Positions 6,452-57,008 of a stretch of DNA of 63,614 nucleotides are shown in pieces; position 1 is the stretch's first letter, and each line of letters starts with the position of its first letter. The notes under the pieces are model-generated. The model ran no database searches, had not been told where the DNA came from, and worked only from the letters and a program-made list of their open reading frames with translations. Position numbers and translations under genes: made by a program. This DNA comes from Betaproteobacteria bacterium (GTDB lineage Bacteria > Pseudomonadota > Gammaproteobacteria > Burkholderiales > SG8-39), in NCBI GenBank assembly GCA_032125995.1, contig JAQBBQ010000210.1:1-63614 (forward strand), in the 5' to 3' direction.

Positions 6452-6471
6452 TACTGTATAAAAATACAGTA
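6452..6471. promoter_or_regulatory. LexA (SOS) box controlling imuA-imuB-dnaE2
   Basis: TACTGTATAAAAATACAGTA is a perfect 20-bp palindrome fitting CTGT-N8-ACAG, 21 nt upstream of the imuA ATG. It overlaps a possible sigma70 promoter, TTGCCA (6436..6441)-N17-TAAAAA. An AGGAGA RBS lies at 6476..6481. Confidence 0.88.
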
Positions 6472-7196: not shown

Positions 7197-8565
7197 GCGG
7201 CGCAGCCTGCCTTGGGCGATTGTGGAAGATCGTCGGGTGCTCGCCTGCGATGCGCAGGCCGAGACGCTAGGCCTGCACGCCGGAATGGGGCTTGCTGCGG
7301 CGTGGGCACTCGCCCCGCGCCTGCAGGTACGCGAGCGGGACTCAGACGCCGAGTGCGCGGCGCTCGAAGGGATTGCCGCCTGGCTTTGCCGGTTTACGCC
7401 CGCGGTTTCGCTGGAACGCCCGCATGGCGTGCTGGCGGAAGTGCATGGCAGCCTGCGTCACTTCGGCGGTCTCCAGGCGCTCGTTTTGCAGATTCGTGAG
7501 GGTATTGCGGCGCTCGGATTCAGCGCACGTCTGGCGGTTGCGCCGAGTGCACAAGGGGCATGGCTGCTGACCTTTGGGGCGACGACGCCATTATTTGAGG
7601 ATTTCTCCGTTCTCAGGGATGCCCTCGCGCATTTGCCCGTCGAGGCCGTTTGCACGACAGACGAGGGCCGCGCGCTGCTGAACCGTATCGGGATCACGAC
7701 CGTGCGACAGCTTCTCCGACTGCCGCGCGCGGGTGTGACGCGGCGCTTCGGGCCGGCGCTTCTCGAACGCCTCGACCGCGCACTGGGGATGCAACCTGAT
7801 CCGCGCTGCTTTTTCGCCCCGCCCGAGCGCTTCGCAGCGGCGCTCGAACTGCCGGCCGAGGTCGAGCATGCCGAAGGCGTGCTGTTCGCCGCGCGCCGTC
7901 TGCTCCTACAGCTCGAGGGGCTGCTGACCGCACGCCAGTCGGGGGTACGGCAATTTCTCGTCATGCTCGAGCATCGAGGCCTGCCACCGACCCGGATCGA
8001 AGTGGGGCTGGCGTCCCCGGGACGTGAAGCCGGGCGTTTTGGTGAGCTTTTGCGCGAACGACTTGTCGGGCACAGGCTTGCCGCCCCCGTCGAGGCAATT
8101 CGCATCGAGGCGGACGCGTTTATCCCGTTCGAGGGCATGACCCTAGGGTTGTTCGGCGATGCACGCGAGGAGACGGAGGCGTGGGCACGGCTCGTCGAGC
8201 GCTTGCAGGCCCGGCTCGGCCAGGACGCCGTGTACGGCCTTGGTCTGAATGCGGACCACCGTCCTGAGCGCGCGTGGCGGCGGCTCGCGCCCGACGCAGC
8301 AAAACAGGGCCGAGAAGAAAATCTGTTCGGTCCGCGGCCGCTGTGGCTTGTCGAGCCGCCTCGATCGCTCGACGAGCGGGGCGGCGTTCCCCAGCAGAAC
8401 GGACCGCTCGCCCTGCTCGCGGGGCCCGAACGCATCGAATCCGGCTGGTGGGACGGCGCGCTGATCAGGCGCGACTATTTCATCGCCTGTGCGGCAGGTA
8501 CGACCTTGTTGTGGATCTATCGCGAACCGGGCGGCGGGTGGTATCTGCACGGGATCTTCGCTTGA
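7126..8565 (+). CDS. imuB: ImuB, catalytically inactive Y-family polymerase-like protein
   Basis: An ImuB-type N-terminus, MIWIALRFPQLTLETVS, starts at the ATG at 7126. The tracked ORF beginning at 6745 is an upstream open extension. It sits between imuA and dnaE2. Confidence 0.85.
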   Translation: MIWIALRFPQLTLETVSRSHAPHERRSLPWAIVEDRRVLACDAQAETLGLHAGMGLAAAWALAPRLQVRERDSDAECAALEGIAAWLCRFTPAVSLERPHGVLAEVHGSLRHFGGLQALVLQIREGIAALGFSARLAVAPSAQGAWLLTFGATTPLFEDFSVLRDALAHLPVEAVCTTDEGRALLNRIGITTVRQLLRLPRAGVTRRFGPALLERLDRALGMQPDPRCFFAPPERFAAALELPAEVEHAEGVLFAARRLLLQLEGLLTARQSGVRQFLVMLEHRGLPPTRIEVGLASPGREAGRFGELLRERLVGHRLAAPVEAIRIEADAFIPFEGMTLGLFGDAREETEAWARLVERLQARLGQDAVYGLGLNADHRPERAWRRLAPDAAKQGREENLFGPRPLWLVEPPRSLDERGGVPQQNGPLALLAGPERIESGWWDGALIRRDYFIACAAGTTLLWIYREPGGGWYLHGIFA

Positions 8566-8593
8566 GCGCAGCGTCGGCGCGTGGCGTAAGCGT

Positions 8594-8611
8594 TGTAAAC
8601 GCTGTAAACGC
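8594..8611. repeat. Perfect tandem 9-mer x2 (TGTAAACGC) in the imuB-dnaE2 spacer
   Basis: TGTAAACGCTGTAAACGC is read directly. Confidence 0.9.
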
Positions 8612-8630
8612 CGTTTTGTGATTTTGCGAA

Positions 8631-8648
8631 CTTGATCGACTTGATCGA
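8631..8648. repeat. Perfect tandem 9-mer x2 (CTTGATCGA) in the imuB-dnaE2 spacer
   Basis: CTTGATCGACTTGATCGA is read directly, 22 nt upstream of the dnaE2 ATG. Confidence 0.9.
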
Positions 8649-8669
8649 CCGCAGAAAGCAATCGCGACC

Positions 8670-11600
8670 ATGGCTTTCGAACTTCCCGCCTATGCAGAGC
8701 TGCATGGTCTGTCGAACTTCACTTTTTTACGCGGCGCCTCGCACCCCGAGGAGCTGGTCGAGCAGGCTGCGGCACTGGGTTATCGCGCGCTTGCCCTGAC
8801 CGACGAATGCTCGTTCGCTGGCGCCGTTCGTGCGCACCTTGCGGCGAAGCGCTGCGGGTTGCCGCTCATTCTCGGCACCGAACTACGGCTCGAGGGCGGC
8901 ATGAAACTGGTTCTGCTCGCAACCGATCGGCGTGCGTACGGCGCCATTTCCACCCTCATCACCCTGGGGCGCAGGCGGGCGAAAAAGGGCTGCTATACGC
9001 TGTTACCGACCGACGTCGAGGCCATCACGGGCAGTCGTGCGCTGGTGCTGCTCATTCCCGCAGGCGTCCCCGATCTCACGCAGGCGCGCTGGGTGGCGGA
9101 GCGTTTTGCAGGCAATGCCTGGCTGGCGGCCGAACTGCACTGCGGCCCGGGCGATCGGGCGCAGCTCGCGCGCCTGCGCGAGATCGCGGCGGCGGCGCAT
9201 CTGCCCCTGGTAGCTGCCGGCGATGTCCACATGCATCTGCGCTCGCGCCGCCGGCTGCAGGACACGCTCACCGCGATCCGGCTCGGCAGGCCGATCGCAC
9301 AGTGCGGCCATGCGCTGTATCCAAACGCAGAGCGCCATCTGCGCCAGCGCGTGCGGTTGGCACAGCTCTACCCGGCCGAGCTCCTCGCAGAAACGCAGGC
9401 GATCGCCGAGCGCTGTCGGTTCTCGCTCGAGGCGTTGCGCTACGACTATCCGGAGGAACTGGTACCCAAGGGCGAAACCCCGGCTGGCTGGCTGCGTTGG
9501 TTGACTGCGCAGGGCCTGGCCTGGCGGTTCCCGCAGGGCATACCGGACCGGGTCAAGCAGACCGTCGAACACGAGCTCAGCTTGATCGCCGAGCTTGGCT
9601 ACGAGTCGTTTTTCCTCACCGTGCACGACATCGTGCGGTTTGCGAAGCGCGAGGGAATTCTCTGTCAGGGACGCGGTTCGGCGGCGAATTCCACCGTCTG
9701 CTACGCGCTCGGCATCACCGAGGTGGATCCGGCGCGCATGAGCATGCTGTTCGAGCGCTTTGTGTCCCGGGAGCGTCACGAACCGCCCGATATCGACGTT
9801 GACTTCGAGCACCAGCGACGCGAGGAGGTCATTCAGTACATCTATGGAAAATATGGGCGCGAACGTGCCGCGCTCGCCGCGACGGTCATCTGCTATCGAG
9901 CGAAGAGTGCGGTACGCGACGTCGGCAGGGCGCTTGGGCTATCACCCGATCAGCTGACCTGTCTGTCAAAGAGTCTCGCGTGGTGGGACGATCGTGCACG
10001 ACTGCCCGAACGCGTACGTGATGCCGGCCTGGACCCGGAAAGTCCGCTGATCGAGCGCTTGCTCGAGTTGAGTGGCGCCTTGATCGGTTTCCCGCGTCAC
10101 CTGTCGCAGCATGTCGGCGGGTTCGTCATTTCGCATGGACCGATCGCCGAACTCGTGCCGGTGGAAAACGCGGCGATGCCCGAGCGCAGCGTCATCCAAT
10201 GGGACAAGGATGATCTCGAAGCGCTTGGCCTGCTGAAGGTCGATGTGCTCGCATTGGGCATGCTCTCGGCCATCCGTCGCGCGCTGGATTTTGTCAGCCA
10301 GCGTCGTGCAGCGCCTTTCAGGATGGCGGACGTGCCAGCGGAGGATCCTGCGACCTACGAGATGATCGGCCATGCGGACACGGTGGGCGTATTTCAGATC
10401 GAGTCGCGTGCGCAGATGTCGATGCTGCCGCGGCTGAAGCCCGAGAATTTCTACGATTTGGTGATCGAGGTTGCGATCGTGCGTCCCGGGCCGATTCAAG
10501 GGGGCATGGTGCATCCCTACCTGCGGCGGCGGCAGGGGCTGGAAGCGGTGACCTATCCGAGCGATGCAGTGCGGCAGGTGCTCGAGCGCACGCTCGGGAT
10601 ACCGATTTTCCAAGAACAGGTCATGCAGCTTGCCGTGGTGGCAGCCGGGTTCACGCCGGGTGAGGCGGACAATCTGCGTCGTGCGATGGCGGCATGGCGA
10701 CGCAAAGGCGGATTGGAACACTTCGAAACACGCTTGATCCACGGCATGCTGGAGCGTGGTTATGCACGCGGATTTGCCGAGAGCATCTATCGCCAGATCC
10801 TCGGTTTTGGTGAATACGGATTTCCCGAATCGCATTCCGCGAGTTTTGCTCTGCTGGTCTACGTCTCGGCGTGGCTGAAACGCCACGAACCTGCAGCGTT
10901 TCTCGCTGCATTGCTCAACAGCCAGCCGATGGGGTTTTATGCGCCGTCGCAATTGGTGCAAGACGCGCGGCGTCATGGCGTTACCGTGCTGCCGCCGGAC
11001 ATCAACGCAAGCGATTGGGACTGCACGCTGGAAGAGGGCGCGGTGAGACTGGGCCTGCGCATGGTGCATGGTCTCGGCAAGGTCGCCGGGTCACGCATTA
11101 CCGCAGCGCGCGCAAGCTGCGCGGCGCGCGCGTTCGAATCGATCGAGAATCTGACATGGCGTGCCGCGCTCAACCGGCACGATTTGAAATGTCTGGCAGC
11201 CGCGGATGCCCTGGTGGCGCTTGCCGGGCATCGGCGGCAGGCGCACTGGCGGGTCGCGGGCGTCGAGCGGGTGCAAGACCTGCTGGGTCCGGTACCGCAG
11301 CGCGACCCTGTCGTTGCGCTGCCGGCGCCGAGCCTGGGTGAAGGCATCGTCGCCGACTATGCAAGCGTGGGATTGACACTCGGCCCGCATCCACTCGCGC
11401 TGTTGCGATCCAGGCTGGCGCAACGTCGCCTGATGACCGCCGAGCAGCTGCGTGCGCTGTCACATGGCGAGACGGCCCATGCGGCCGGGCTGGTGACCTG
11501 CAGGCAGCGACCGGACACCGCAAGCGGTGTCGTGTTCGTGACCCTTGAGGATGAAACGGGCACTGTCAATGTCGTGGTCTGGCGCGCTCTTGTCGAGCGT

Positions 11601-11750
11601 CAGCGTCGCGCGCTGCTCGGTGCCAAATTGCTCGCGGTACAAGGCGTGATCGAACGTGATGGCGAAGTGGTGCATCTTGTCGCGCATCGCCTGCATGACT
11701 ACAGTGATCTGCTTGGCCGACTGGCCACGCACTCGCGCGACTTCCACTGA
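8670..11750 (+). CDS. dnaE2: Error-prone DNA polymerase DnaE2 (ImuC)
   Basis: 1026 aa. It has an N-terminal PHP domain (YAELHGLSNFTFLRGASHPEELV) and a Pol III alpha core (GRGSAANS, PDIDVDFEH, FQIESRAQM). The size and the position after imuAB distinguish it from replicative DnaE. Confidence 0.93.
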   Translation: MAFELPAYAELHGLSNFTFLRGASHPEELVEQAAALGYRALALTDECSFAGAVRAHLAAKRCGLPLILGTELRLEGGMKLVLLATDRRAYGAISTLITLGRRRAKKGCYTLLPTDVEAITGSRALVLLIPAGVPDLTQARWVAERFAGNAWLAAELHCGPGDRAQLARLREIAAAAHLPLVAAGDVHMHLRSRRRLQDTLTAIRLGRPIAQCGHALYPNAERHLRQRVRLAQLYPAELLAETQAIAERCRFSLEALRYDYPEELVPKGETPAGWLRWLTAQGLAWRFPQGIPDRVKQTVEHELSLIAELGYESFFLTVHDIVRFAKREGILCQGRGSAANSTVCYALGITEVDPARMSMLFERFVSRERHEPPDIDVDFEHQRREEVIQYIYGKYGRERAALAATVICYRAKSAVRDVGRALGLSPDQLTCLSKSLAWWDDRARLPERVRDAGLDPESPLIERLLELSGALIGFPRHLSQHVGGFVISHGPIAELVPVENAAMPERSVIQWDKDDLEALGLLKVDVLALGMLSAIRRALDFVSQRRAAPFRMADVPAEDPATYEMIGHADTVGVFQIESRAQMSMLPRLKPENFYDLVIEVAIVRPGPIQGGMVHPYLRRRQGLEAVTYPSDAVRQVLERTLGIPIFQEQVMQLAVVAAGFTPGEADNLRRAMAAWRRKGGLEHFETRLIHGMLERGYARGFAESIYRQILGFGEYGFPESHSASFALLVYVSAWLKRHEPAAFLAALLNSQPMGFYAPSQLVQDARRHGVTVLPPDINASDWDCTLEEGAVRLGLRMVHGLGKVAGSRITAARASCAARAFESIENLTWRAALNRHDLKCLAAADALVALAGHRRQAHWRVAGVERVQDLLGPVPQRDPVVALPAPSLGEGIVADYASVGLTLGPHPLALLRSRLAQRRLMTAEQLRALSHGETAHAAGLVTCRQRPDTASGVVFVTLEDETGTVNVVVWRALVERQRRALLGAKLLAVQGVIERDGEVVHLVAHRLHDYSDLLGRLATHSRDFH

Positions 11751-11771: not shown

Positions 11772-12296
11772 ATGACGCTCTATGCCGATACCTTAGGCCT
11801 CATTGCCGCGCGACACCAGCGCAAGCCGGCGAGCACGATGCCTGCGCTCGATGCGCTGTTCCAGCGGCTCTCGGCTTGCCCATCGGCGTCGCATGCGTTC
11901 GCGATCGAGGATCGAATCTGGCACCTGTGGATGTACCACCCGCACCGGATCGCAAACGACGCGCTCGATCGATCGGCGGATGACATCGCGGCGCGCCGCT
12001 ACGATGTTGCCGAAACACGGCTGACACGGTTGCTGCGCTGTCTACCGAACTACGTTGAGGCCTGGCACAAGCGCGCGACCCTCTACTACCTTCTGGGTCA
12101 CGATGAGCAATGCGTGCGTGACCTGAATCGCACCCTCACGCGCGAGCCACGCCACTTCGGTGCACTGTGCAGCTTCGCGGAAATTCTCCTCGGCGAGGGA
12201 GAGGACGAAGGCGCGTGCTTTGCATTTTCCGCGGCGCTCGCGGTCCATCCCTATCTTCTGCGCGCGCGGGCGGTCGTCGAGGGCGAGGTGCCATGA
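11772..12296 (+). CDS. TPR-repeat protein, function unknown
   Basis: 174 aa with TPR-like helices (EAWHKRATLYYLLGHDEQCVRDLNRTL, ALCSFAEILLGEGEDEGACFAFSAAL). It begins 21 nt after dnaE2. Confidence 0.6.
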   Translation: MTLYADTLGLIAARHQRKPASTMPALDALFQRLSACPSASHAFAIEDRIWHLWMYHPHRIANDALDRSADDIAARRYDVAETRLTRLLRCLPNYVEAWHKRATLYYLLGHDEQCVRDLNRTLTREPRHFGALCSFAEILLGEGEDEGACFAFSAALAVHPYLLRARAVVEGEVP

Positions 12297-12453
12297 CCTG
12301 CGATCGAGCGCGATAAACCGTTGACATCCCTTGACAATGGGGCGCTGCGGGGCGAAAAAAAGTCCCTATAATTCAAACTTATCTCGGCTACCGAGGGCCG
12401 CCGGCGGCCAGCGGCCAGCGGGCAGCGGGCAGAACAGCGAGGCGCAAGCAGGC

Positions 12454-12759
12454 ATGAAGCAAGACGCGTACACCGTGACGGTGGCGAAAGACCTCGCCGA
12501 CCTGATTCCCTCTTTCATGGCCAATCGCCGCAAGGAAATCGAGACCTTGCGCACGGCGCTGTCGGCGTCGGATTTCGACGAACTGCGTCGCCTCGGACAT
12601 CGCATGAAAGGCGCCGGTAGTTCCTACGGATTCGACCTGGTTTCCATGACCGGCAAGACCATCGAAGACGCCGCGCAGTCCGCTGACACGGACACCATCG
12701 AATCGAGCATCGCGACGTACGAAGACTATCTCGCCAAGGTCGAGATCGTGTATGAGTAA
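12454..12759 (+). CDS. Stand-alone histidine phosphotransfer (Hpt) protein
   Basis: 101 aa from the ATG at 12454 (MKQDAYTV). It carries the Hpt signature LGHRMKGAGSSYGF (HxxKG). The stop overlaps the next gene's start (ATGAGTAA). The tracked 12331 start adds an implausible Gly/Ala/Arg-rich leader. Confidence 0.8.
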   Translation: MKQDAYTVTVAKDLADLIPSFMANRRKEIETLRTALSASDFDELRRLGHRMKGAGSSYGFDLVSMTGKTIEDAAQSADTDTIESSIATYEDYLAKVEIVYE

Positions 12760-13903
12760 ACCCGCTGCTCGGCAGGCGCCAGTGGGCGTTTCGCCCGCAG
12801 CGTCTGCATTCCGCGTCCTGATTGTCGACGACGACCCCGACATGTTGGGATTTCTCGCGCACATGTTGCGCGGGGAAGGGATGGACGCCGAGACCGCCGC
12901 CGACGGCAACGAAGGCATCCAGAAGGTGCAGGCCTCAGCGCCGGACCTGATTCTGCTCGACGTGATGATGCCGGGCGTGACCGGGTTCGATGTCTGCAAG
13001 CGCCTCAAATCGGATGAGGCGACGGCGATGATACCGATCGTGCTCGTGACCTCGCTCGACGACTCGGGCAGCCGGGTGCGCGGAATTGAGGCCGGGGCGG
13101 ACGATTTTCTCTCCAAACCGGTCAAGCGCGAAGAGTTGATCGCGCGGGTCAAGACGCTGCGCCGTCTGCACGAGACGCGGCGCGAACTTGAGAGCCGGCG
13201 TCTTGCCGGGGAAATCCAGAACCGGGAGGCGATCCGGAGTGCGTTTTCGCGCTATGTCTCGCCGCAACTCGCGGAACGCATCATCGCGGATGCCGGGGAG
13301 GACGGCGAACTGTTTTCGAATCGTGCACAGCGCGTCGATGTCGTGGCGCTGTTCGCGGATCTGCGTGGTTTCACACGGATTACCGAGAGCACCGAGGTTG
13401 GCGACGTGGTTGCCATGCTGAACGAGTATTTCACGATCCTCACCGATGCGGCCTATCACCACGACGCGACGATTTTCAACATGGCCGGCGACAGCCTGCT
13501 GGTGGGCTTCAACGTTCCGTTTCCGCAGGAAGATGCGACGCGACGGGCACTCTTGACCGCGCAGGAAATGGTTGCTCGATTCGCCCCCGTCGCCCGGCGC
13601 TGGAAAGATCACTATGGGATCGCGACCGGCGTCGGCATCGGGATCTGCATGGGCGAAGCCATTCTTGCAAATGTCGGCTCCCCCCACTACACCAGCTATA
13701 CGATCATTGGCAATCCGGTGAACACGGCGGCACGGCTGATGCAGACGGCCCCCGCCAACGAGGTCCTCATGTGCGGAACGGTGTACGCGGAGATCCACGA
13801 CCTGTTGCCGGCAAACGCGGTCGAACCGCGCGGCGAGGTTACGTTGCGCGGCAAGCAAGAGCCGATTGCGGTCTATGCGGTGCGAATCCCCGTTACGGAG
13901 TAA
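12752..13903 (+). CDS. Response-regulator receiver fused to a class III adenylate/guanylate cyclase
   Basis: REC domain: VLIVDDDPDM...DLILLDVMMPGVTGF...LSKP. Cyclase domain: VVALFADLRGFT (metal Asp), AGDSLLVGF (metal Asp), IGNPVNTAARL (Asn/Arg). Confidence 0.88.
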   Translation: MSKPAARQAPVGVSPAASAFRVLIVDDDPDMLGFLAHMLRGEGMDAETAADGNEGIQKVQASAPDLILLDVMMPGVTGFDVCKRLKSDEATAMIPIVLVTSLDDSGSRVRGIEAGADDFLSKPVKREELIARVKTLRRLHETRRELESRRLAGEIQNREAIRSAFSRYVSPQLAERIIADAGEDGELFSNRAQRVDVVALFADLRGFTRITESTEVGDVVAMLNEYFTILTDAAYHHDATIFNMAGDSLLVGFNVPFPQEDATRRALLTAQEMVARFAPVARRWKDHYGIATGVGIGICMGEAILANVGSPHYTSYTIIGNPVNTAARLMQTAPANEVLMCGTVYAEIHDLLPANAVEPRGEVTLRGKQEPIAVYAVRIPVTE

Positions 13904-13910
13904 CGGAGTA
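13895..13910. repeat. Perfect tandem 8-mer x2 (ACGGAGTA) at the cyclase stop / kinase RBS
   Basis: ACGGAGTAACGGAGTA. The first copy supplies the TAA stop at 13901..13903. The second supplies the GGAG Shine-Dalgarno for the ATG at 13914. Confidence 0.9.
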
Positions 13911-13913
13911 ACG

Positions 13914-15188
13914 ATGCGGATTCTCATCATCGATGACGACGCGGATCTGCGCAACCTCCTCGCGCACTACCTGAAGCAGGAATTTCCGCAAGTCGAGGTG
14001 GAGCTGTTCGATCCCCTGGTGCGCGATCTTCCCGATGAGACGTTCCCGCTGGGTCGCTACGACGTCATCATTCTCGACTACATGCTTGGTCGCGGCGATG
14101 GGCTGGATTGGCTGGCGAAGTTCAAGCGCCACGCCGACTGCCCGGCGGTGATTTTCTTGACCGGTGCGGGCAACGAATCGATCGCGGTGCGGGCGATGAA
14201 GGCCGGCGCGGACGATTACCAACGCAAGCAGGAGCTGACGCGAGAAAAACTCGTCGCCTCGGTGCGTGAGCTTACGCACGACGCAAAGGAGATGACGGCG
14301 TCGCCCGAGGTGGCCGCGCGCATGGAAGGCCAGATGCTCGGCACGCGGCTCCAGATTCCGGGCGTCCGCGTGCTGCGCCTGATTGGCGAAGGCGGGATGT
14401 CACGCGTTTATCTTGCGTCGCGCGAGGGCGACGATAACCCCCTGGTCGTCAAGCTGCTGCGCAGCGAGGTCATGCAGGACCGCAATGCGCGCGAGCGCTT
14501 CCTCGAAGAGTACGAACTGATCGAGCGTATTCAGAGCCGCCACGTGGCACGCATCGAAGGGCACGGCGTATCAGAGGACTATGCCTACCTGGTAATGGAG
14601 TTCTTCGATGGCGGCGATCTCAGCAAGCGTCTGGGCGGTAAACCGATGCAGGCGGAAGAGGCCCTGCGCATCTTTCGGGAACTCATGTTTGCGCTCGGCG
14701 ACATCCACGAGCAAGGCATTCTGCACCGCGACCTGAAACCGCAGAACTTGATGTTTCGCGCCGATGGCAGCTTGGCGATCGTCGATTTTGGGATCGCCAA
14801 ACACATCGACGCAGTCGACCGGACGAGCGACGGTGAGGTGCTCGGAACGCCGCGCTATATGAGCCCCGAGCAGGTGTCAGGACGTGCACTCGATATGCGA
14901 ACCGATATTTACAGCGCGGGTGTGCTGCTGTTTCAGATGCTCACGGGACGCCATCTGTTCGACGGCGAGACCGCGGTGGAGGTGGCACTGCACCATCTCA
15001 ATACGCCGCCGCCGTCGCTGCCGGACAGCCTGGTGACCTATCAGCGGCTGATGGACAAGTTGCTCGAAAAGGATCGCGACGCGCGATTCCGCAACACCGA
15101 TGAGGTGATCGGCTTCCTGTCGCGCAAGTTCTACCAGGGCACCGGGGCGCTCGGCGCCGAGATCACCCGCAAACTGCTGGAAGGCTAA
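13914..15188 (+). CDS. Response-regulator receiver fused to a Hanks-type Ser/Thr protein kinase
   Basis: REC domain: MRILIIDDDADL...DVIILDYMLGRGDG...AGADDY. Kinase domain: IGEGGMSRVYLA, VVKLL (Lys), HRDLKPQNLMF, DFGIAK, GTPRYMSPEQ. The ATG at 13914 is preceded by GGAG. Confidence 0.88.
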   Translation: MRILIIDDDADLRNLLAHYLKQEFPQVEVELFDPLVRDLPDETFPLGRYDVIILDYMLGRGDGLDWLAKFKRHADCPAVIFLTGAGNESIAVRAMKAGADDYQRKQELTREKLVASVRELTHDAKEMTASPEVAARMEGQMLGTRLQIPGVRVLRLIGEGGMSRVYLASREGDDNPLVVKLLRSEVMQDRNARERFLEEYELIERIQSRHVARIEGHGVSEDYAYLVMEFFDGGDLSKRLGGKPMQAEEALRIFRELMFALGDIHEQGILHRDLKPQNLMFRADGSLAIVDFGIAKHIDAVDRTSDGEVLGTPRYMSPEQVSGRALDMRTDIYSAGVLLFQMLTGRHLFDGETAVEVALHHLNTPPPSLPDSLVTYQRLMDKLLEKDRDARFRNTDEVIGFLSRKFYQGTGALGAEITRKLLEG

Positions 15189-15224
15189 CAAGGGTCGCGC
15201 AGCGGGCGCTGGGCGACTGGCGTG

Positions 15225-15617
15225 TCAGTCCGGCAGGTTGCTCCACAGGGTGCGCAGCTGCTCCGGTAGATCTTTGGGCGAAAACGGCTTTGAAATGGTG
15301 CCCTTTGCGCCCATCGCAATCAGGCTATCGAGTTCGCGCGACGACGCCTTAGCGGTGATGAAAACGACCGGCAAGTGCGCGACCTCCGGATCCTCCATCA
15401 TCTTGCGGAACAGGGTAGGGCCGTCCATCTCCGGCATCATCCAATCGAGCATGACGAGATCCGGCTGATAGGTCTTCATCGCCGCGATCGCAAGCGTCGA
15501 ATTGCCGACGACCTCGATCGACAGCTTGCCGACGCGCTCCAGCGACAGCCGCACGATACGCTGGATGTCCTCGTCGTCTTCCACATAGAGCACCTTCTGC
15601 AACGGTCGCGTCGGCAT
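15225..15617 (-). CDS. Stand-alone response-regulator receiver (CheY-like)
   Basis: 130 aa, REC only: VLYVEDDEDI...DLVMLDWMMPEMDG...ISKPF. The start overlaps the upstream kinase stop by 1 nt (TGATG). Confidence 0.9.
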   Translation of the reverse strand: MPTRPLQKVLYVEDDEDIQRIVRLSLERVGKLSIEVVGNSTLAIAAMKTYQPDLVMLDWMMPEMDGPTLFRKMMEDPEVAHLPVVFITAKASSRELDSLIAMGAKGTISKPFSPKDLPEQLRTLWSNLPD

Positions 15618-17464
15618 CAGGGTTCCTTCGCAGTATTGGACGGCAGGAACTTGGGCATTTCAAACCAGAATGTCGTGCCGCCGCCATCACGGCCTTGGAA
15701 ATCGATGCGTCCGTGCATGACCTCGACCAGGTGTTTGCAGATTGCCAGGCCCAACCCGGTGCCGCCGTGCTGACGCGCGGTCGTGGAATCGGCCTGGGCG
15801 AAGCGGGTAAACATCTTCTCACGAAAACTCTCCGGAACACCGGGCCCGCGATCGTGGACACTGACGCGAACGGCGGGGCCCCGGTCCTCCAGCGCCACAT
15901 CGATTGCCTCGCCCTCGGGAGAAAACTTCGCCGCGTTCGAGAGCAGATTGGTCAGCACCTGGATCAGGCGCTTGCGATCGGCGTAAATCTGCGTTGCCGG
16001 CAGGTTCCCGATCGCGTTCATGCGCACCTGGTAGCGCGCGGCGAAGGCCCGATTGAGTACCAGAGCCTCCTCCAATACATCGTCGATCTCCAATACTTCA
16101 GGCGCCACGGTGAATTGGCCGGCGCGAATCTTCTCGACATCGAGCAGATCGTTGATCAGGTCGAGCAAGCGCTGGCCATTGCGTTCGGCGATCACCGTGA
16201 GATCCAATACATCCTTCGTCAGTTCGCCGAGGACGCCGGAATTCACCAGTTCGAGCGAGCCGATAATCGAGGTCAGCGGCGTTCGCAGCTCGTGGCTAAG
16301 CGTCGACGTGAACTCCTTTTTCATGCGCTCGGCCTCGAGCTGGCGTGACATGTCGCGCCCCTGCGCCACGATGGAAAGGATTCGACCGTCGGGACTGACC
16401 AGGGGGGTCACGGTCCACTCGCAGACGATGTCAAGCCCGTCGTGACGAACGTTGCGGATGAGTTGCGCCATCATGGGAATTCGGGTGTCGAGAATCGCAC
16501 GCCATTTGGCGGAGAACTCGGCGCGTTCGTCGGATGCGACGAGTACCTCGATGGGTTGTCCGATGAGTTCCGTCGCCGCGTAGCCGAAGAGGACTTCGGC
16601 CGCCGGATTGATCTGCTGGATTTCACCTTGGCCATCGATTTCGAGGACCGCGATGGGTGCGCGGTCGGCGAACAAGGCGAGCTTGCGCCCCGAGGCCTCG
16701 ACTTGACGGCCCGCTTCCTCGAGTTCGAGCAGCTGCTTGCCGAGCCGCCTGTTGAGCTCCCGGTAGTCATCGGTGAGTTCGCTGTAGGCGTAGCGCAGGC
16801 GGTAGCCCGTCGCAAACACGTTGGATAGTCGGTAGGCAATAGCGACATTGACCGCGTAGAAGACGGGCACGAGGATGGCTAGTTCGGTGAACAGCCGGTT
16901 GCCGAAGGTGGCGAGCACGTAGGCAAACGGCGTCAGTACGCTCGCCGCATAGACCGCGTAGACTGGCCACGAGCCTGCGAAGACCGGAATGCCGCTGGTA
17001 ACGACCCCTGCGATGAGGAAGGCGAGGAACACCTGCTGTTCGCCGGTATGCGAGGGGAAAAAAACCGCCCCGGCGAATCCCCAGACGGATCCGATGGCGA
17101 GCGCCGACAGGCCCAGCCATCGCATCCATTGATCCGCTTCGGCGAGCTTGTTGCGGCTGCGCCGATAACTGAGCAGGAGGCCCGCGCTCGCGAACGTCAT
17201 CAGCATGACGAGTCCCCACCAGAACACCATGAGACCCTGGAAGCGCGGCTCCCAGAGCTCAAAGGTGGCGATGCCGCCGATGGCAAACGCGCCAACGATT
17301 GCTATCCAGAGTTGGTCGTAGAGCTGCTCGACACGATCCGCAAGTATCCTGCGCGGGTCGGCATGCTCGCCGGCGCCCTCAAGTAGCGCCAGGTTCGGAG
17401 CTTCGCGTAGCGATTGCGCGGGCGCGTTGAGTAAATCCATGGGCAGGGGCGAGAGCCTGCCCAA
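15617..17464 (-). CDS. Membrane-bound PAS sensor histidine kinase (no receiver or Hpt domain)
   Basis: About six N-terminal transmembrane segments. PAS domain ([31 protein letters not shown]). H-box [17 protein letters not shown]-box [14 protein letters not shown]-boxes DRGPGVP and [11 protein letters not shown]. Confidence 0.9.
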
Positions 17465-17520: not shown

Positions 17521-18147
17521 TTACAGACTTTTGCCGTTTCGCACGATACCGACCGCGATTCCCTCGATCGCGAACGGATCGCGGCGCAAATCGACCTCGA
17601 TCGCTTCGAAATCCGGATTCTCTGGATGGAGCTGCACGACGTGGCCGCGGCGCCGAAAGCGTTTGACGGTCACCTCATCACCCAGTCGAGCGACGACCAT
17701 CTGGCCGCTGCGCGCTTCGTGCGTGCGATGGACCGCCAGCAGATCGCCCTCGAGTATCCCGGCGTCGCGCATCGACAGGCCGCGCACCCGGAGCAGATAG
17801 TCGGCGCGTGGCGTGAACAGGTTGGGATCGACCTGTAGCCGGGCCTGGACGTTTTCTTCGGCCAGGATCGGACTGCCGGCGGCGACCCTGCCGATCACCG
17901 GTAACTCCAGGGCGCGACCGAGGCGGACCGCGCTGCGCGAACGTACGCGGATGCCGCGCGAGGCGCCAGCGGCAATCTCGAGCGCGCCCTTGCGCTCGAG
18001 CGCGCGCAGGTGCTGTTCGGCCGCGTTGACCGAGCGAAAGCCCATTGAACGCGCGATCTCGGCGCGCGTCGGCGGGTAGCCGGTACTCTCGGTGAGCTCG
18101 CGAATCAGCTGCAAGATCTCAGACTGGCGTTCAGTCAGTGCGTCCAT
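17521..18147 (-). CDS. lexA: LexA repressor
   Basis: [15 protein letters not shown]...[15 protein letters not shown] (HTH), cleavage site VAAG, catalytic Ser in GLSMRDAGI, Lys in VTVKRF. Start is taken at the ATG at 18147. An in-frame ATG at 18162 is possible. The tracked 18225 start runs through the operator. Confidence 0.93.
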
Positions 18148-18172
18148 GGTGGCGGTGAGCATGCTTACAGTG

Positions 18173-18188
18173 CTGGGATTATATCCAG
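18173..18188. promoter_or_regulatory. Probable LexA autoregulatory box overlapping the lexA -10
   Basis: On the minus strand it reads CTGGATATAATCCCAG, which fits CTG-N10-CAG with G/C at the fourth positions instead of T/A. It contains a perfect TATAAT (plus-strand 18178..18183) and sits 26 nt upstream of the lexA ATG, in the spacer shared with the divergent acyl-CoA synthetase. Confidence 0.55.
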
Positions 18189-31462: not shown

Positions 31463-32989
31463 CTAGCGGTCGAGCTCGACCTCGACGATCTCGGTTACCG
31501 GCAGCGCAGCGATCTCCTTGAGCTTTTCGCCACGTGCTCCGGTGGGGTCGAGTAACGTACCGACGCTGACATAGGTCGATGCGACAAAGAGCGACCGCCC
31601 GCCCTCGGCTTCGCGTCGAACGCCGAACTTGATGCGTTTGCGCGCGTCGACATCGAGCTTGCCAAGGAGATTCTTGGTTGCCCAGATTGCCCCGTAACGG
31701 GCGAAATCGGACAGCCGCGCGCCATGGTTGATGGTGTCGCCAAGCACGGTAAATTCGACGTGAGTCGCGGTCTGGAACGTGCCGAGCCATTCCTGGCCTT
31801 CATTGAGCCCGGTGTTCAGGTAGAGCTCGTTCGACCAGCCTTTGCGCAGCTGCCATGCCTTGCTGATGCGCCGCATGGCGTCGCGCATCTCGTGCGCGGC
31901 TGACAGCGCGTTCATCACGTAGTTGCAGTCCGGCTGGGGGAAAAAGTAGTACACCATGCCGTCGCCTGCGTGCTTGCCGTAGGTCCCGTAATAGCGCCGG
32001 AAAATCGGCTCCATGGCCGACCAGATCTGGTTGATAAGCTCAAAATACTCCTCCGGCGGCAATTCGGCGCAGATCTTTACCGAGTCCTGGAGATCCGCCA
32101 CGAGAACGGCGACATGGGTGAGCACCGGTAGGCGCTTACGGATCAGATCGCGGATGACCTCGTCACGCCGCGCGAGGAGCTCGAGCAGCCCGTCGCCGGC
32201 GGGCTCGCCCGGTACATAGGCGAACAGGATGCCCTCGCGAAACTGGGTGGCGTACACGGTGTGCACCCGGCAGTTGCCCTGTGCATCCGGCGCCATCACC
32301 GTCACCTGCGAGATGGCCTGATGGGGCAGGGGTTCGGCCTCTTGGTAGAGCCGTTCGAGAACCCCGCGCGTGTCTGCGGGGGCGTCCTTAGACAACGCGA
32401 TACACCCGCCTTTGGTCGAACGGCGCTTGGCAACCGAGAAGTGGAAGCGCAGCAACTCGTCACAGGGCCCGCATTGAACGCAGGCGCCGCCCCGATGCAG
32501 AAAACCGAAGATGTTGCGTGACTCGCTACTCGAGGGCAGGACGTCGAACCCACCGAGCACGCTGTGTCGCGCCGACTCGTTGTGCCAAATGATCTCAAAG
32601 TTGTAATTGACCATGTAGCAGGGGGTGGGCAGGTCGGCGAGCGTGACACGCAGCGCCGCTGTGCCTGGCGTGCTGGCGGGTGAGGGCGGCGCCTGGGTCG
32701 CCAATGGCGCCACGGCCTTGGCGTGGCCGCCCGAATCGGCGTCGCTGAGCCCCTGGACGGCGTAGCGGGCAACGATTTCCGCCATGCTCATTCCCTGGTC
32801 CTTCAGACGCTGGATTTCGTCGATTCGATTCAAAGCCTCCTCAGGGAAGTAGCCAAGGCGGCGTGCATCTCCATCATCTGGCGCTGGAAATCGAACGTCA
32901 GGCTTTGGGATCAATCCAAGGTTAATGTAATTGTTTAATGTTGCCCTGGAGATTCTTGTTTTTTCTATAATTTCTTTGCTACTTATCAT
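31463..32989 (-). CDS. MerR-type HTH / sensor domain / class III adenylate-guanylate cyclase fusion protein
   Basis: N-terminus: MISSKEIIEKTRISRATLNNYINLGLIPKP...EIQRLKDQGMSMAEI (MerR HTH). Middle: PAS-like segment with CVQCGPC. C-terminus: cyclase motifs VAVLVADLQDS, HAGDGMVYYF, LGDTINHGARL. I prefer the ATG at 32989 (GGAG 11 nt upstream). The tracked GTG at 33013 is also possible. Confidence 0.8.
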   Translation of the reverse strand: MISSKEIIEKTRISRATLNNYINLGLIPKPDVRFPAPDDGDARRLGYFPEEALNRIDEIQRLKDQGMSMAEIVARYAVQGLSDADSGGHAKAVAPLATQAPPSPASTPGTAALRVTLADLPTPCYMVNYNFEIIWHNESARHSVLGGFDVLPSSSESRNIFGFLHRGGACVQCGPCDELLRFHFSVAKRRSTKGGCIALSKDAPADTRGVLERLYQEAEPLPHQAISQVTVMAPDAQGNCRVHTVYATQFREGILFAYVPGEPAGDGLLELLARRDEVIRDLIRKRLPVLTHVAVLVADLQDSVKICAELPPEEYFELINQIWSAMEPIFRRYYGTYGKHAGDGMVYYFFPQPDCNYVMNALSAAHEMRDAMRRISKAWQLRKGWSNELYLNTGLNEGQEWLGTFQTATHVEFTVLGDTINHGARLSDFARYGAIWATKNLLGKLDVDARKRIKFGVRREAEGGRSLFVASTYVSVGTLLDPTGARGEKLKEIAALPVTEIVEVELDR

Positions 32990-33019
32990 TCGATATCCGC
33001 TCCGATCTTGCACCCAAGG

Positions 33020-55496: not shown

Positions 55497-57008
55497 ATGC
55501 CGAGCGAGCGCGAAGTCAGACTGCGGATGCCTGCGCAACGATCGGCTGCGGCGCTGTGGCGCCTGCTGGACAGCAAGCCGCAACGGCACCGCGTCATTAC
55601 GACCTATCTCGACACCGAGAAAAGTCTGCTCGAACGCTCGCGTGCTGCGCTTCGTCTGCGACGGTTCGGGCGCCGCTGGCTGCAGTGCTTCAAGGCCGAA
55701 GCATCGGATGGCATGGCGTTCCTTGGCCGCCTTGAATGGGAGCGCCCGGCGCGCGGCGGACGCTTACGACCAGCGGCGTTCGCACTCGATGAGATTCGAT
55801 CGACCACGGGGTTCGATCTGGCGTCGATCCACGACCGCCTGCGACCCGTCTTCACGACACGATTTGTTCGACAGCAAATAGAACACCGAACCCCAAGCGG
55901 TCAGCGCATCGAAGTCGCGTTGGATCAAGGCAGTATTGAGGCAGGCAATCGCGTCGTTCCGCTGCGCGAGATCAAGTTCGAGCTTATCGAAGGCGATCTG
56001 GTGCCCATGCTGGAGCACGTTCGTGCGTTGATTCCTGAATTGCTGCTCGAGTTGGAGGTCCGCAGCAAGGCCGAGCGCGGCTACCAGCTTGCGGCTGGAG
56101 AACGTGCTGAACCGATCAAGGCACGCCGTCCGAGGCTAAACGCAGAGGACGACACGGGCACCGCGCTTGGGTCGGTCATTGGCGGCTGCGTATCGCAGAT
56201 CGCGGTCAATGTTCACGGTGTCGCAAATTCGCGCGACCCCGAGTACCTGCATCAGCTTCGCGTCGGATTGCGTCGTTTGAGATCCGGCATCCGAGTGTTC
56301 CGTGCCTGTGCCTCGGTGGAGGGCACGCAGACCTTGGTCGATGGCCTGCGTGCGCAACTGCCGGCACTTGGTGCTGCGCGGGACTGGGATGTCGTCACGG
56401 CAATGCTCGAGCGGTGCATCACGGGCGCCGCAGACGAGGGCGTCGAAGTGTCGCCGATTGTGCGCTGGGCACGCCGCCGGCGCGCAATCGCACGGCGCAA
56501 GGCGCGGTCCGTCGCGCGGTCGAGCGGATTCCAACAGCTGCTGCTCGATGTACTGATTTGGGTCGAGCGCGCGCGTGCGGAACCGACGCGCCCGAGCGCG
56601 GAAACGGAAGGTCCGCGACGGATCGGCGATCTCGCAAAGCAAAAAATTTCGAAGCTCGCCCGCAAGGCGGAACAGCTTGGCGATGCCAGCGCCTGGTCGG
56701 ACGCAACGGCGCGACACACGCTGCGCATACGCCTCAAGCGGCTGCGGTACCTGTGCGAGTTCTTCGCGGGCTGCTTCAAGCGCAAACGGTTGCGCCGCTA
56801 CCTCGAGCGCCTTGAGGCGCTGCAAGACACGCTCGGGGAACTGAACGACATCACGACCGCCCGACGCCTGCTGCAGACCTTGAACGCGCCGGATCGGGGA
56901 CTTCAGCTCGCATTTATCCGCGGCTGGCTCAGCGCCCGCGAGGACGCCTTGATTACCGAGCTGGACGCCGCCTGGGGTGCGTTCCGTCAACAGACGCTGC
57001 TGGGTTGA
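55497..57008 (+). CDS. CYTH + CHAD domain protein (triphosphate tunnel metalloenzyme with polyphosphate-associated CHAD domain)
   Basis: N-terminal ExExK-type start (SEREVRLRM) and a beta-tunnel region ending EIKFELIEGD. The C-terminal helical domain has HQLRVGLRRLRS and LRIRLKRLRYLCEFF, typical of CHAD. Confidence 0.82.
   Translation: MPSEREVRLRMPAQRSAAALWRLLDSKPQRHRVITTYLDTEKSLLERSRAALRLRRFGRRWLQCFKAEASDGMAFLGRLEWERPARGGRLRPAAFALDEIRSTTGFDLASIHDRLRPVFTTRFVRQQIEHRTPSGQRIEVALDQGSIEAGNRVVPLREIKFELIEGDLVPMLEHVRALIPELLLELEVRSKAERGYQLAAGERAEPIKARRPRLNAEDDTGTALGSVIGGCVSQIAVNVHGVANSRDPEYLHQLRVGLRRLRSGIRVFRACASVEGTQTLVDGLRAQLPALGAARDWDVVTAMLERCITGAADEGVEVSPIVRWARRRRAIARRKARSVARSSGFQQLLLDVLIWVERARAEPTRPSAETEGPRRIGDLAKQKISKLARKAEQLGDASAWSDATARHTLRIRLKRLRYLCEFFAGCFKRKRLRRYLERLEALQDTLGELNDITTARRLLQTLNAPDRGLQLAFIRGWLSAREDALITELDAAWGAFRQQTLLG

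Follow-up and report, generated by a model that had tools for sequence, protein, structure and literature searches.

Relays of the two-component type almost always terminate in a transcription factor or in a cyclic di-GMP (c-di-GMP) enzyme. The branched His-Asp-His-Asp order is known from yeast, where it is represented by the Sln1-Ypd1-Ssk1/Skn7 pathway, and a free phosphotransfer (Hpt) protein is known from Pseudomonas aeruginosa, where HptB is fed by unlinked hybrid kinases with their own receiver (REC) domains, and where the outputs of HsbR are a PP2C phosphatase and an anti-sigma-type kinase. In the HptB-HsbR-HsbA system the gene for the monomeric, free Hpt immediately precedes one for a receiver-enzyme fusion by which protein Ser phosphorylation is controlled, and the output does not bind DNA and connects to nucleotide second messengers (PMC5085249, PMC6482189). 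The CckA-ChpT-CtrA/CpdR relay of Caulobacter joins one phosphotransfer protein to two terminal receivers in a His-Asp-His-Asp chain (PMC9981736), and the KinA-Spo0F-Spo0B-Spo0A relay of Bacillus subtilis leads from a non-hybrid kinase to a stand-alone, relay-only receiver (relay-receiver features: PMC9981736). Here we describe a locus from an uncultured soil Burkholderiales bacterium, located on contig JAQBBQ010000210.1 within a stretch of 63.6 kb that was analysed as a whole (hereafter, the window). Its five genes, at positions 12454-17464, encode a free Hpt, a receiver fused to a class III nucleotide cyclase (REC-cyclase), a receiver fused to a Hanks-type Ser/Thr kinase (REC-kinase), a stand-alone receiver (lone REC) and a membrane histidine kinase (HK). 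We consider it rather probable that they constitute one branched four-step His-Asp-His-Asp phosphorelay, in which the phosphoryl group would pass from the HK to the lone REC, then to the Hpt, and finally to both receiver-enzyme fusions. A complete relay would appear to end here in two enzymes of usually separate systems, a class III cyclase and a Hanks kinase.

Gene arrangement and conservation

Three genes of the locus are transcribed from the forward strand, namely those of the free Hpt (12454-12759; PF01627, E 2.4e-10), the REC-cyclase (12752-13903; PF00072, E 1.4e-30; PF00211, E 6.5e-16) and the REC-kinase (13914-15188; PF00072, E 4.9e-17; PF00069, E 1.2e-46). They face two genes on the reverse strand, which encode the lone REC (15225-15617; PF00072, E 6.1e-24) and the HK (15617-17464; PAS, E 7e-15; HisKA, E 2.4e-17; HATPase_c, E 1.7e-29). 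Positions and convergent layout agree with those given in a first-pass annotation, made from the sequence alone, when compared with the open reading frame (ORF) list, and in hidden Markov model scans the Hpt, the three REC, the Guanylate_cyc, Pkinase, PAS, HisKA and HATPase_c domains all score above the Pfam gathering score. The close coupling of the genes that had been described also holds in detail: the Hpt stop and the cyclase start overlap by 8 nt (ATGAGTAA), the HK stop and the start of the lone REC have one base in common, as judged from the coordinates, and the ATG of the kinase gene lies 10 nt past the cyclase stop, preceded by a direct duplication, ACGGAGTAAC-GGAGTAAC. At 13895-13913 (forward strand) a tandem duplication of about 9 nt, ACGGAGTAA-CGGAGTAAC, extends across the cyclase stop, and its second copy is the ribosome-binding site of the REC-kinase gene. 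A scan for intrinsic terminators between the genes gave the same counts as shuffled sequences, i.e. nothing meaningful. The HK has neither a REC nor an Hpt domain of its own in the Pfam scan, and the free protein of 101 aa is the only Hpt, with no further HK, REC or Hpt detected by tblastn in the window. None of the five proteins reaches a curated family cut-off in NCBIfam, so that they carry no curated name. Contigs of several metagenome-assembled genome (MAG) assemblies (GCA_0321...) and a single contig from a JGI metagenome encode identical proteins.

Scanning the species representatives of GTDB gave 165 genomes with a relative, and the best 80 of them were examined as species-level loci; the residue alignments discussed below comprise 71-81 homologues drawn from these loci, unless stated otherwise. 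All 80 loci come from metagenome-assembled or uncultured genomes, mostly labelled Burkholderiales or Betaproteobacteria, and the few with other taxon labels are probably mis-binned. An Hpt gene is found upstream of the kinase gene in all 70 loci with room upstream and the REC-cyclase is present in 65 of these 70, while the lone REC and the HK follow downstream in all loci with room there (61/61). The first-pass annotation had made its interpretation depend on synteny in related genomes, and the five genes do occur together in 48 of the 53 loci with room on both sides, the remaining five being without the cyclase only. The module is kept also where dnaE2, which precedes it in the window, is not upstream, and where 1.2-6 kb separate the two operons. 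The REC-kinase is the best-conserved gene of the neighbourhood (72-91% identity, compared with 65-91% for dnaE2 and similar values for lexA, the flanking gene on the opposite side), and it has thousands of close metagenomic relatives, whose names, where given, are "Burkholderiales bacterium" or "protein kinase".

Several loci depart from the common arrangement. The REC-cyclase is missing in L026, L028, L035, L044 and L073, and in L044 a gap of 430 nt between the Hpt and the kinase gene (7568-8001) may be the remnant of a lost cyclase. In L021 a hybrid kinase of 966 aa with the architecture CHASE2-HisKA-HATPase-REC-Hpt is encoded between the two operons (7430-10330, reverse strand).

Phosphotransfer and catalytic residues

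All three receivers were said to keep the context of the phospho-acceptor, and the motifs LLDVMMPG, ILDYMLGRGDG and MLDWMMPEMDG are indeed present in the translations. The lone REC is a protein of 130 aa with the acceptor Asp58 and the residues Thr88 and Lys110, all three of which are invariant among 78 homologues. Its beta5 switch position is occupied by Thr107 and is variable, being never aromatic (T 35, A 23, I 11, V 8, S 1), as opposed to an invariant Phe in the receiver of the REC-cyclase and an invariant Tyr in that of the REC-kinase. Spo0F, with His101 at this position, belongs to the same non-aromatic class as the lone REC. Intermediary receivers tend to lose the beta5 aromatic residue that drives allosteric output, and terminal ones keep it (Bruderlin et al., PMC9981736). 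The beta5 residues of the locus would fit such a division, with the lone REC as the intermediary and the enzyme-linked receivers as the terminal ones. Helix alpha1, the docking face, is alike at 6.3 of 16 positions between the two enzyme-linked receivers and at 4.1-4.5 of 16 positions between these and the lone REC, a difference that fits, weakly, a docking partner shared by the two enzyme-linked receivers.

The HK contains about 5-6 hydrophobic (transmembrane) helices between residues 48 and 214, followed by a coiled coil and the PAS, HisKA and HATPase_c domains, and the His of its H-box (SHELRTP) is invariant among 73 homologues. Its start was placed at TTG 17464, which gives 615 aa; MAG gene callers use ATG 17440 (607 aa). 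In the free Hpt the phospho-accepting residue is His49, located within the motif H-R-M-K-G; in the alignment of 74 homologues His49 and Gly53 are invariant and Lys52 is kept in 71. With the Hpt domain at the C-terminus of the hybrid CHASE2 kinase of L021 the free Hpt shares 39% identity, which relates it to the Hpt domains of unorthodox kinases.

The region upstream of the Hpt gene contains, on the forward strand, a direct repeat, TGACATCCCTTGACA (12322-12336), located 45 nt upstream of a TATAAT hexamer (12367-12372) that itself lies 87 nt 5' of the Hpt ATG. A TA[TA]AAT hexamer is kept 5' of the Hpt gene in 70 of 73 related loci, and in 20 of those a repeat of the TGACA-N5-TGACA type begins about 45 nt (45-48) 5' of the hexamer. 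The segment 12322-12372 is likely to be the Hpt operon's own promoter, to judge from this conservation; a simple sigma-70 scan missed it because the repeat is too distant from the -10 element. The spacing of the direct repeat looks like that of a site for a winged-helix regulator. In many related loci only 9-16 nt lie between the hexamer and the Hpt ATG, pointing to a transcript with almost no leader in these loci.

The REC-cyclase (383 aa) comprises a receiver (residues 22-134), a helical linker of about 60 residues that closes with a conserved SRYVSP segment, and a cyclase domain (196-372). The linker and SRYVSP resemble the signalling helix and the transducer element of other class III cyclases. 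In the receiver, the acceptor is Asp70 and the switch residues are Thr100, Phe119 and Lys122; Asp70 and Thr100 are invariant in an alignment of 71 homologues. The solved structures closest to the cyclase domain all belong to class IIIb, namely Cya2 (2W01), CyaB (3R5G) and CyaC (1WC0), and the metal-binding Asp203 and Asp247 and the transition-state residues Asn324 and Arg328 align with those of the three enzymes and are kept in more than 90% of the 71 homologues. Asn243 occupies the base-specifying site, which precedes the second metal Asp by four residues; the homologues have N (39), S (30) or G (2) there and never K or E, and the partner specificity residue, Thr317, is invariant; the motif FNMAGD with Asn243 is invariant also in homologues at 40-46% identity. 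The M. tuberculosis enzyme Rv1900c has Asn at the base-specifying site and shows relaxed specificity. In adenylyl cyclases this position is Lys, and in Cya2 it is Glu, the residue for GTP (general roles of the catalytic and specificity residues of class III cyclases: PMC4215837). The claim that both enzymes of the locus retain their catalytic residues consequently stands as far as catalysis is concerned, and fails for the base-specifying Lys; where the first-pass annotation proposed to tell ATP from GTP by the specificity residues, neither Lys (ATP) nor Glu (GTP) is found, but the pair Asn243 and Thr317. With the base-reading Lys or Glu absent, the product is uncertain and neither an adenylyl nor a guanylyl label follows: the cyclase looks catalytically competent, and its substrate cannot be read from the sequence.

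The REC-kinase (424 aa) has its receiver at residues 1 to about 125, with the acceptor Asp55 and the residues Thr83, Tyr102 and Lys105, and its kinase domain at about 150-408. The full set of Hanks motifs is present: the Gly-rich loop, the VAIK Lys, the alphaC Glu, HRD..N, DFG and the activation-loop Thr. Asp55, Thr83, Lys105, Lys180, the HRD Asp273, Lys275, Asn278, the DFG Asp291 and Thr312 are invariant in 81 sequences, the alphaC Glu198 is kept in 80 of them, and the Gly-rich loop GEGGMS is invariant in an alignment of 12 sequences. In the receiver, an invariant Lys-Gln stands in place of the usual Lys-Pro cis-peptide. The best solved relatives match the kinase domain only (StkP, with an E-value of 6.7e-44, PknA and PknB), and none of the solved structures matched both the receiver and the kinase domain. 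An AlphaFold2 model calculated from the alignment of 12 sequences had a mean predicted local distance difference test score of 57.7 and a predicted template modelling score of 0.51; its domain arrangement was unreadable and it was not used. Receiver-gated Hanks kinases had been called rarely characterised, and a full-text literature search indeed found no characterised REC-Hanks fusion. As sequences, however, such proteins are not rare, with full-length relatives forming at least about 35 separate clusters at 50% identity among the top 150 matches.

A predicted branched phosphorelay and the alternatives

In an exhaustive search of representatives, the whole clade described above fell into one cluster at 50% identity, alongside many other clusters of full-length REC-Pkinase proteins of about 400-440 aa (37-46% identity). 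One of these outside clusters was taken as a new query and the gene contexts of its matches were examined. In L094 a GAF-PAS-HK is encoded on one strand and a REC, a REC-cyclase, a REC-kinase, an Hpt and a further REC on the other, with identities to the window of 44% for the kinase, 46% for the cyclase and 38% for the Hpt; lexA and dnaE2 are not nearby. The set of components is the same, while gene order and genomic context differ. In L095 a REC-cyclase and a REC-kinase adjoin a REC. L087 encodes both enzymes as a pair as well (40% and 38% identical), and the two genes run towards that of a PAS-HisKA-HATPase-REC kinase whose C-terminal Hpt is weak (E 1.1e-4, which does not reach the cut-off). 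An ORF of 93 aa upstream of the L087 cyclase was considered as a further Hpt and rejected. The presence of HK, REC and Hpt in one polypeptide beside the same outputs would suggest, by the classical reasoning of comparative genomics, that the proteins act jointly also where they are split.

Other relatives are associated with chemotaxis-type genes. Ahead of the hybrid kinase of L087 lie a Che cluster, a further REC-kinase and a gene for a REC-HD-GYP protein; in L088 a REC-kinase ends a CheA/CheW/CheB/CheR cluster, and the genes after it encode a second kinase and a PP2C phosphatase; and in L091 an HK-REC protein with a faint Hpt is flanked by two REC-kinases. Altogether, REC-Hanks kinases are found at the ends of chemosensory clusters (CheA, CheW, CheR, CheD and two CheB) in L087, L088, L091 and L092, and these kinases are 41-43% identical to that of the window, except for the variant in L092, which belongs to the window's own lineage and is 70% identical. 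These neighbourhoods suggest that there is a Che-like pathway whose output is a Ser/Thr kinase. L090 contains an orphan REC-kinase. REC-Hanks kinases thus recur beside Hpt-bearing donors, be it a free Hpt, an unorthodox kinase or CheA, and the REC-cyclase/REC-kinase pair is itself conserved.

Starting from what is observed, namely domains, conserved residues, gene coupling and co-occurrence, we infer the phosphotransfer steps and the direction of regulation, and likewise any nucleotide made and any substrates of the kinase. The HK would sense a signal, within the membrane or through its PAS domain, would autophosphorylate on the His of its H-box and would then phosphorylate Asp58 of the lone REC, to which it is translationally coupled. 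From there the phosphoryl group would go to His49 of the free Hpt, which in turn would phosphorylate both Asp70 of the REC-cyclase and Asp55 of the REC-kinase, and phosphorylation of the receivers would switch the two enzymes. In the case of the cyclase, predicted to be a dimer as expected of class III, the switch would be transmitted via the helical linker and the SRYVSP segment, and in the case of the kinase probably via receiver-driven dimerisation and phosphorylation of the activation loop, dimerisation being presumably the most economical way to activate a PknB-like kinase. With both enzymes switched by receivers, one stimulus would become a cyclic nucleotide and Ser/Thr phosphorylation, with no transcription factor in the module. 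All parts of such a relay are present with intact phosphotransfer residues (the H-box His of the HK, the Asp of the lone REC, the His of the Hpt and the Asp of each terminal receiver), and the genes are coupled in a matching pattern, the HK with the lone REC, and the Hpt with the cyclase and then, 10 nt on, with the kinase.

A number of observations weigh against a single relay. Its two halves are encoded by convergent operons that are transcribed separately, and the Hpt operon seems to have its own promoter. The CHASE2 kinase inserted in L021, with a REC and an Hpt of its own, makes other inputs possible, and comparison of its REC with the three receivers of the locus (29-33% identity each) does not discriminate between them. 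Related REC-kinases are found in Che clusters, where CheA would be the donor. The FATGUY motif of relay receivers of the CckA-Rec, MrrA and SdrG type is absent from the lone REC, whose beta4 reads as a conserved F-I-T-A-K-A-S and not as F-A-T-G-x-Y, although this motif is not universal among intermediary receivers (PMC9981736). Finally, lexA adjoins the module in 50 of 51 loci and is as syntenic as the module itself, and most of the synteny comes from one clade, so that shared descent explains part of it. Several of these points would be accommodated by two separate circuits, which we regard as a possible but distinctly less probable arrangement: the HK and the lone REC would form a pair with a protein-binding output of the CheY or DivK kind, the Hpt operon would be fed by hybrid kinases encoded elsewhere, and their adjacency would reflect shared ancestry or loose co-regulation. 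Separate transcription from a conserved promoter-like element, the hybrid kinase inserted in L021, the ties of REC-kinases to Che clusters in L092 and L087 and the equal synteny of lexA within the clade all agree with this arrangement, as does the precedent of P. aeruginosa, where free HptB has been described as working with hybrid sensors and these are not linked to hptB. Nevertheless, the two operons are paired without exception (61/61 and 70/70), and they stay paired where DNA has been inserted or the dnaE2 flank is lost; in a different genome, L094 brings the same five components together again in one mixed arrangement; in L087 and L091 the same outputs lie beside fused HK-REC-(Hpt) kinases, which speaks for a single pathway; and the lone REC is without the aromatic switch residue expected of a receiver with allosteric output.

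The same components could also be wired as a phosphate shunt, with the HK phosphorylating the REC-cyclase and the REC-kinase directly, and the lone REC and the Hpt acting as a competing sink or a reverse route that drains phosphate and sets the response time. Single-domain receivers beside kinases are often sinks, Hpt proteins can run in reverse, and the acceptor sites are intact in all three receivers of the locus. We nonetheless hold this wiring to be improbable, in view of the translational coupling of the Hpt to the enzyme-linked receivers and not to the HK, of helix alpha1 of these receivers, which is unlike that of the HK-coupled REC, and of the fused HK-REC-(Hpt) proteins of the relatives, which have the classical architecture of a forward relay. 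It would be very surprising indeed if the locus were an anti-phage defence module related to Pycsar, by its cyclase, or to PD-T4-6, by its Ser/Thr kinase. The PADLOC models PycC (E 1.9e-17) and PD-T4-6 (E 2.3e-70) do match the cyclase and the kinase domain; however, these matches cover generic catalytic domains only and are no better than those of Pfam, a Pycsar effector gene is absent at the locus, the proteins are receiver-driven, and the chromosomal context is stable across 80 species and not that of a variable island, with no placement of the genes in defence islands seen. On balance, the branched relay running from the HK through the lone REC and the Hpt to both enzymes is the reading we favour.

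A phosphodiesterase-like gene is found beside the module in some relatives. In L045 (9299-10513, forward strand) a protein with DUF3391 and an HD domain of the HD-GYP type (HHERHDGSGYP) is encoded between the REC-kinase and the lone REC, and a DUF3391-HD-GYP gene occupies this position in 28 of the 80 related loci, being absent from the window; in L087 and L092 a REC-HD-GYP gene adjoins the REC-kinase. An HD-GYP phosphodiesterase may be viewed as a recurrent partner of the module, as these neighbourhoods suggest. It is tempting, though decidedly speculative, to propose that the REC-cyclases with the Asn/Ser-Thr pair, which recur with a REC-Hanks kinase and, in about one third of the species, with an HD-GYP gene of the same operon, are a subfamily of their own whose messenger is neither cAMP nor cGMP, or is a relaxed mixture, that soil Burkholderiales use the module as a dedicated "messenger plus kinase" unit under phosphorelay control, and that the HD-GYP protein is the cognate degrading enzyme.

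Genomic setting and comparison with known systems

The five genes had been placed between a dnaE2 cassette and lexA, and these flanks were confirmed, with the addition of a small gene. On the Hpt side lies a cassette of imuA-like, imuB-like and dnaE2 genes (dnaE2 at 8670-11750), directly followed on the forward strand by a gene for a TPR protein of 174 aa (11772-12296), and on the HK side lies lexA (17521-18162); within the clade, dnaE2 is found upstream in 45 of 54 loci. The only perfect CTGT-N8-ACAG LexA box in the window, CTGTATAAAAATACAG (6454-6469), precedes the imuA-like gene, and an imperfect CTGG-N8-CCAG palindrome, CTGGGATTATATCCAG (18173-18188), overlaps the -10 element of the lexA promoter (TTGCCA-16-TATAAT). 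Control of the Hpt operon by LexA as part of the SOS response was considered and rejected, with no LexA box found within 220 nt upstream of the Hpt gene in any of the 73 loci readable there; two matches lie much further upstream, in loci where the Hpt gene is cut by the contig end. The HK gene begins 57-80 nt past the lexA stop with no T-rich terminator found between them, so that read-through is possible; transcription may continue from lexA into the HK gene, or from dnaE2 and the TPR gene into the Hpt operon. The distant relatives L094 and L087 are without the lexA/dnaE2 setting, which we therefore take to reflect the history of the lineage and not to be part of the mechanism. In the rearranged locus L092, which is without dnaE2, a copy of the TPR protein with 60% identity is encoded between the REC-kinase and the Hpt, so that the TPR gene may be part of the signalling module rather than of the mutagenesis cassette; it turned up in fewer than half of the 80 loci.

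Two further proteins of the window have noteworthy architectures. A protein of 516 aa (31463-33013, reverse strand) combines an N-terminal MerR-type helix-turn-helix with a weak class III cyclase domain (PF00211, E 1e-6), which is an unusual fusion, unrelated to the five-gene module. At 55497-57008 (forward strand) a CYTH-CHAD protein is encoded, which consists of a triphosphate tunnel domain and a polyphosphate-granule-associated domain.

The full-text literature search found no description of a conserved Hpt/REC-cyclase/REC-kinase operon. No principle is overturned by this locus, and every part of it comes from a known family. The pairing of REC-cyclase and REC-kinase outputs is nevertheless real and widespread, recurring in many genomes, and the locus as such is compact and is kept in uncultured Burkholderiales of at least 165 GTDB species, with thousands of variants in metagenomes. 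It offers a test case for the gating of a Hanks kinase by a receiver, for the product of a cyclase without Lys or Glu at the base-reading position, and for the coupling of His-Asp to Ser/Thr phosphorylation.

The fusion of a receiver to a class III catalytic domain is shared with CyaC of Spirulina/Anabaena and with ACR of Dictyostelium (PMC3009899), and with Cya2, CyaB and CyaC the cyclase has in common the two metal-binding Asp, the Asn-Arg pair and, at the second specificity site, a Thr of the class IIIb type, whereas the present family has Asn or Ser throughout in place of the Lys or Glu by which those enzymes read the base. Like the Hanks kinases of the PknB/StkP type, the REC-kinase has a complete kinase domain with all catalytic motifs, but its input is an N-terminal receiver, and transmembrane and PASTA sensor domains are absent.

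As for the relay, the Sln1 and CckA pathways differ from the predicted chain in that their first receiver is fused to the kinase and their outputs are transcription, control of proteolysis or a mitogen-activated protein kinase cascade, while the locus described here has a free-standing first REC and two enzymes as outputs; moreover, ChpT is a DHp-like dimer and not a PF01627 Hpt. The B. subtilis relay resembles the locus in its non-hybrid kinase and stand-alone receiver, yet Spo0B is not a PF01627 Hpt either, and the single output of that relay binds DNA. For a free Hpt coupled to a receiver-enzyme that would act on protein phosphorylation, the closest bacterial analogue is HptB-HsbR-HsbA, from which the present locus differs in that a non-hybrid HK and a separate REC are encoded alongside the Hpt, and in that the receiver-linked enzymes are a Hanks kinase and a class III cyclase.

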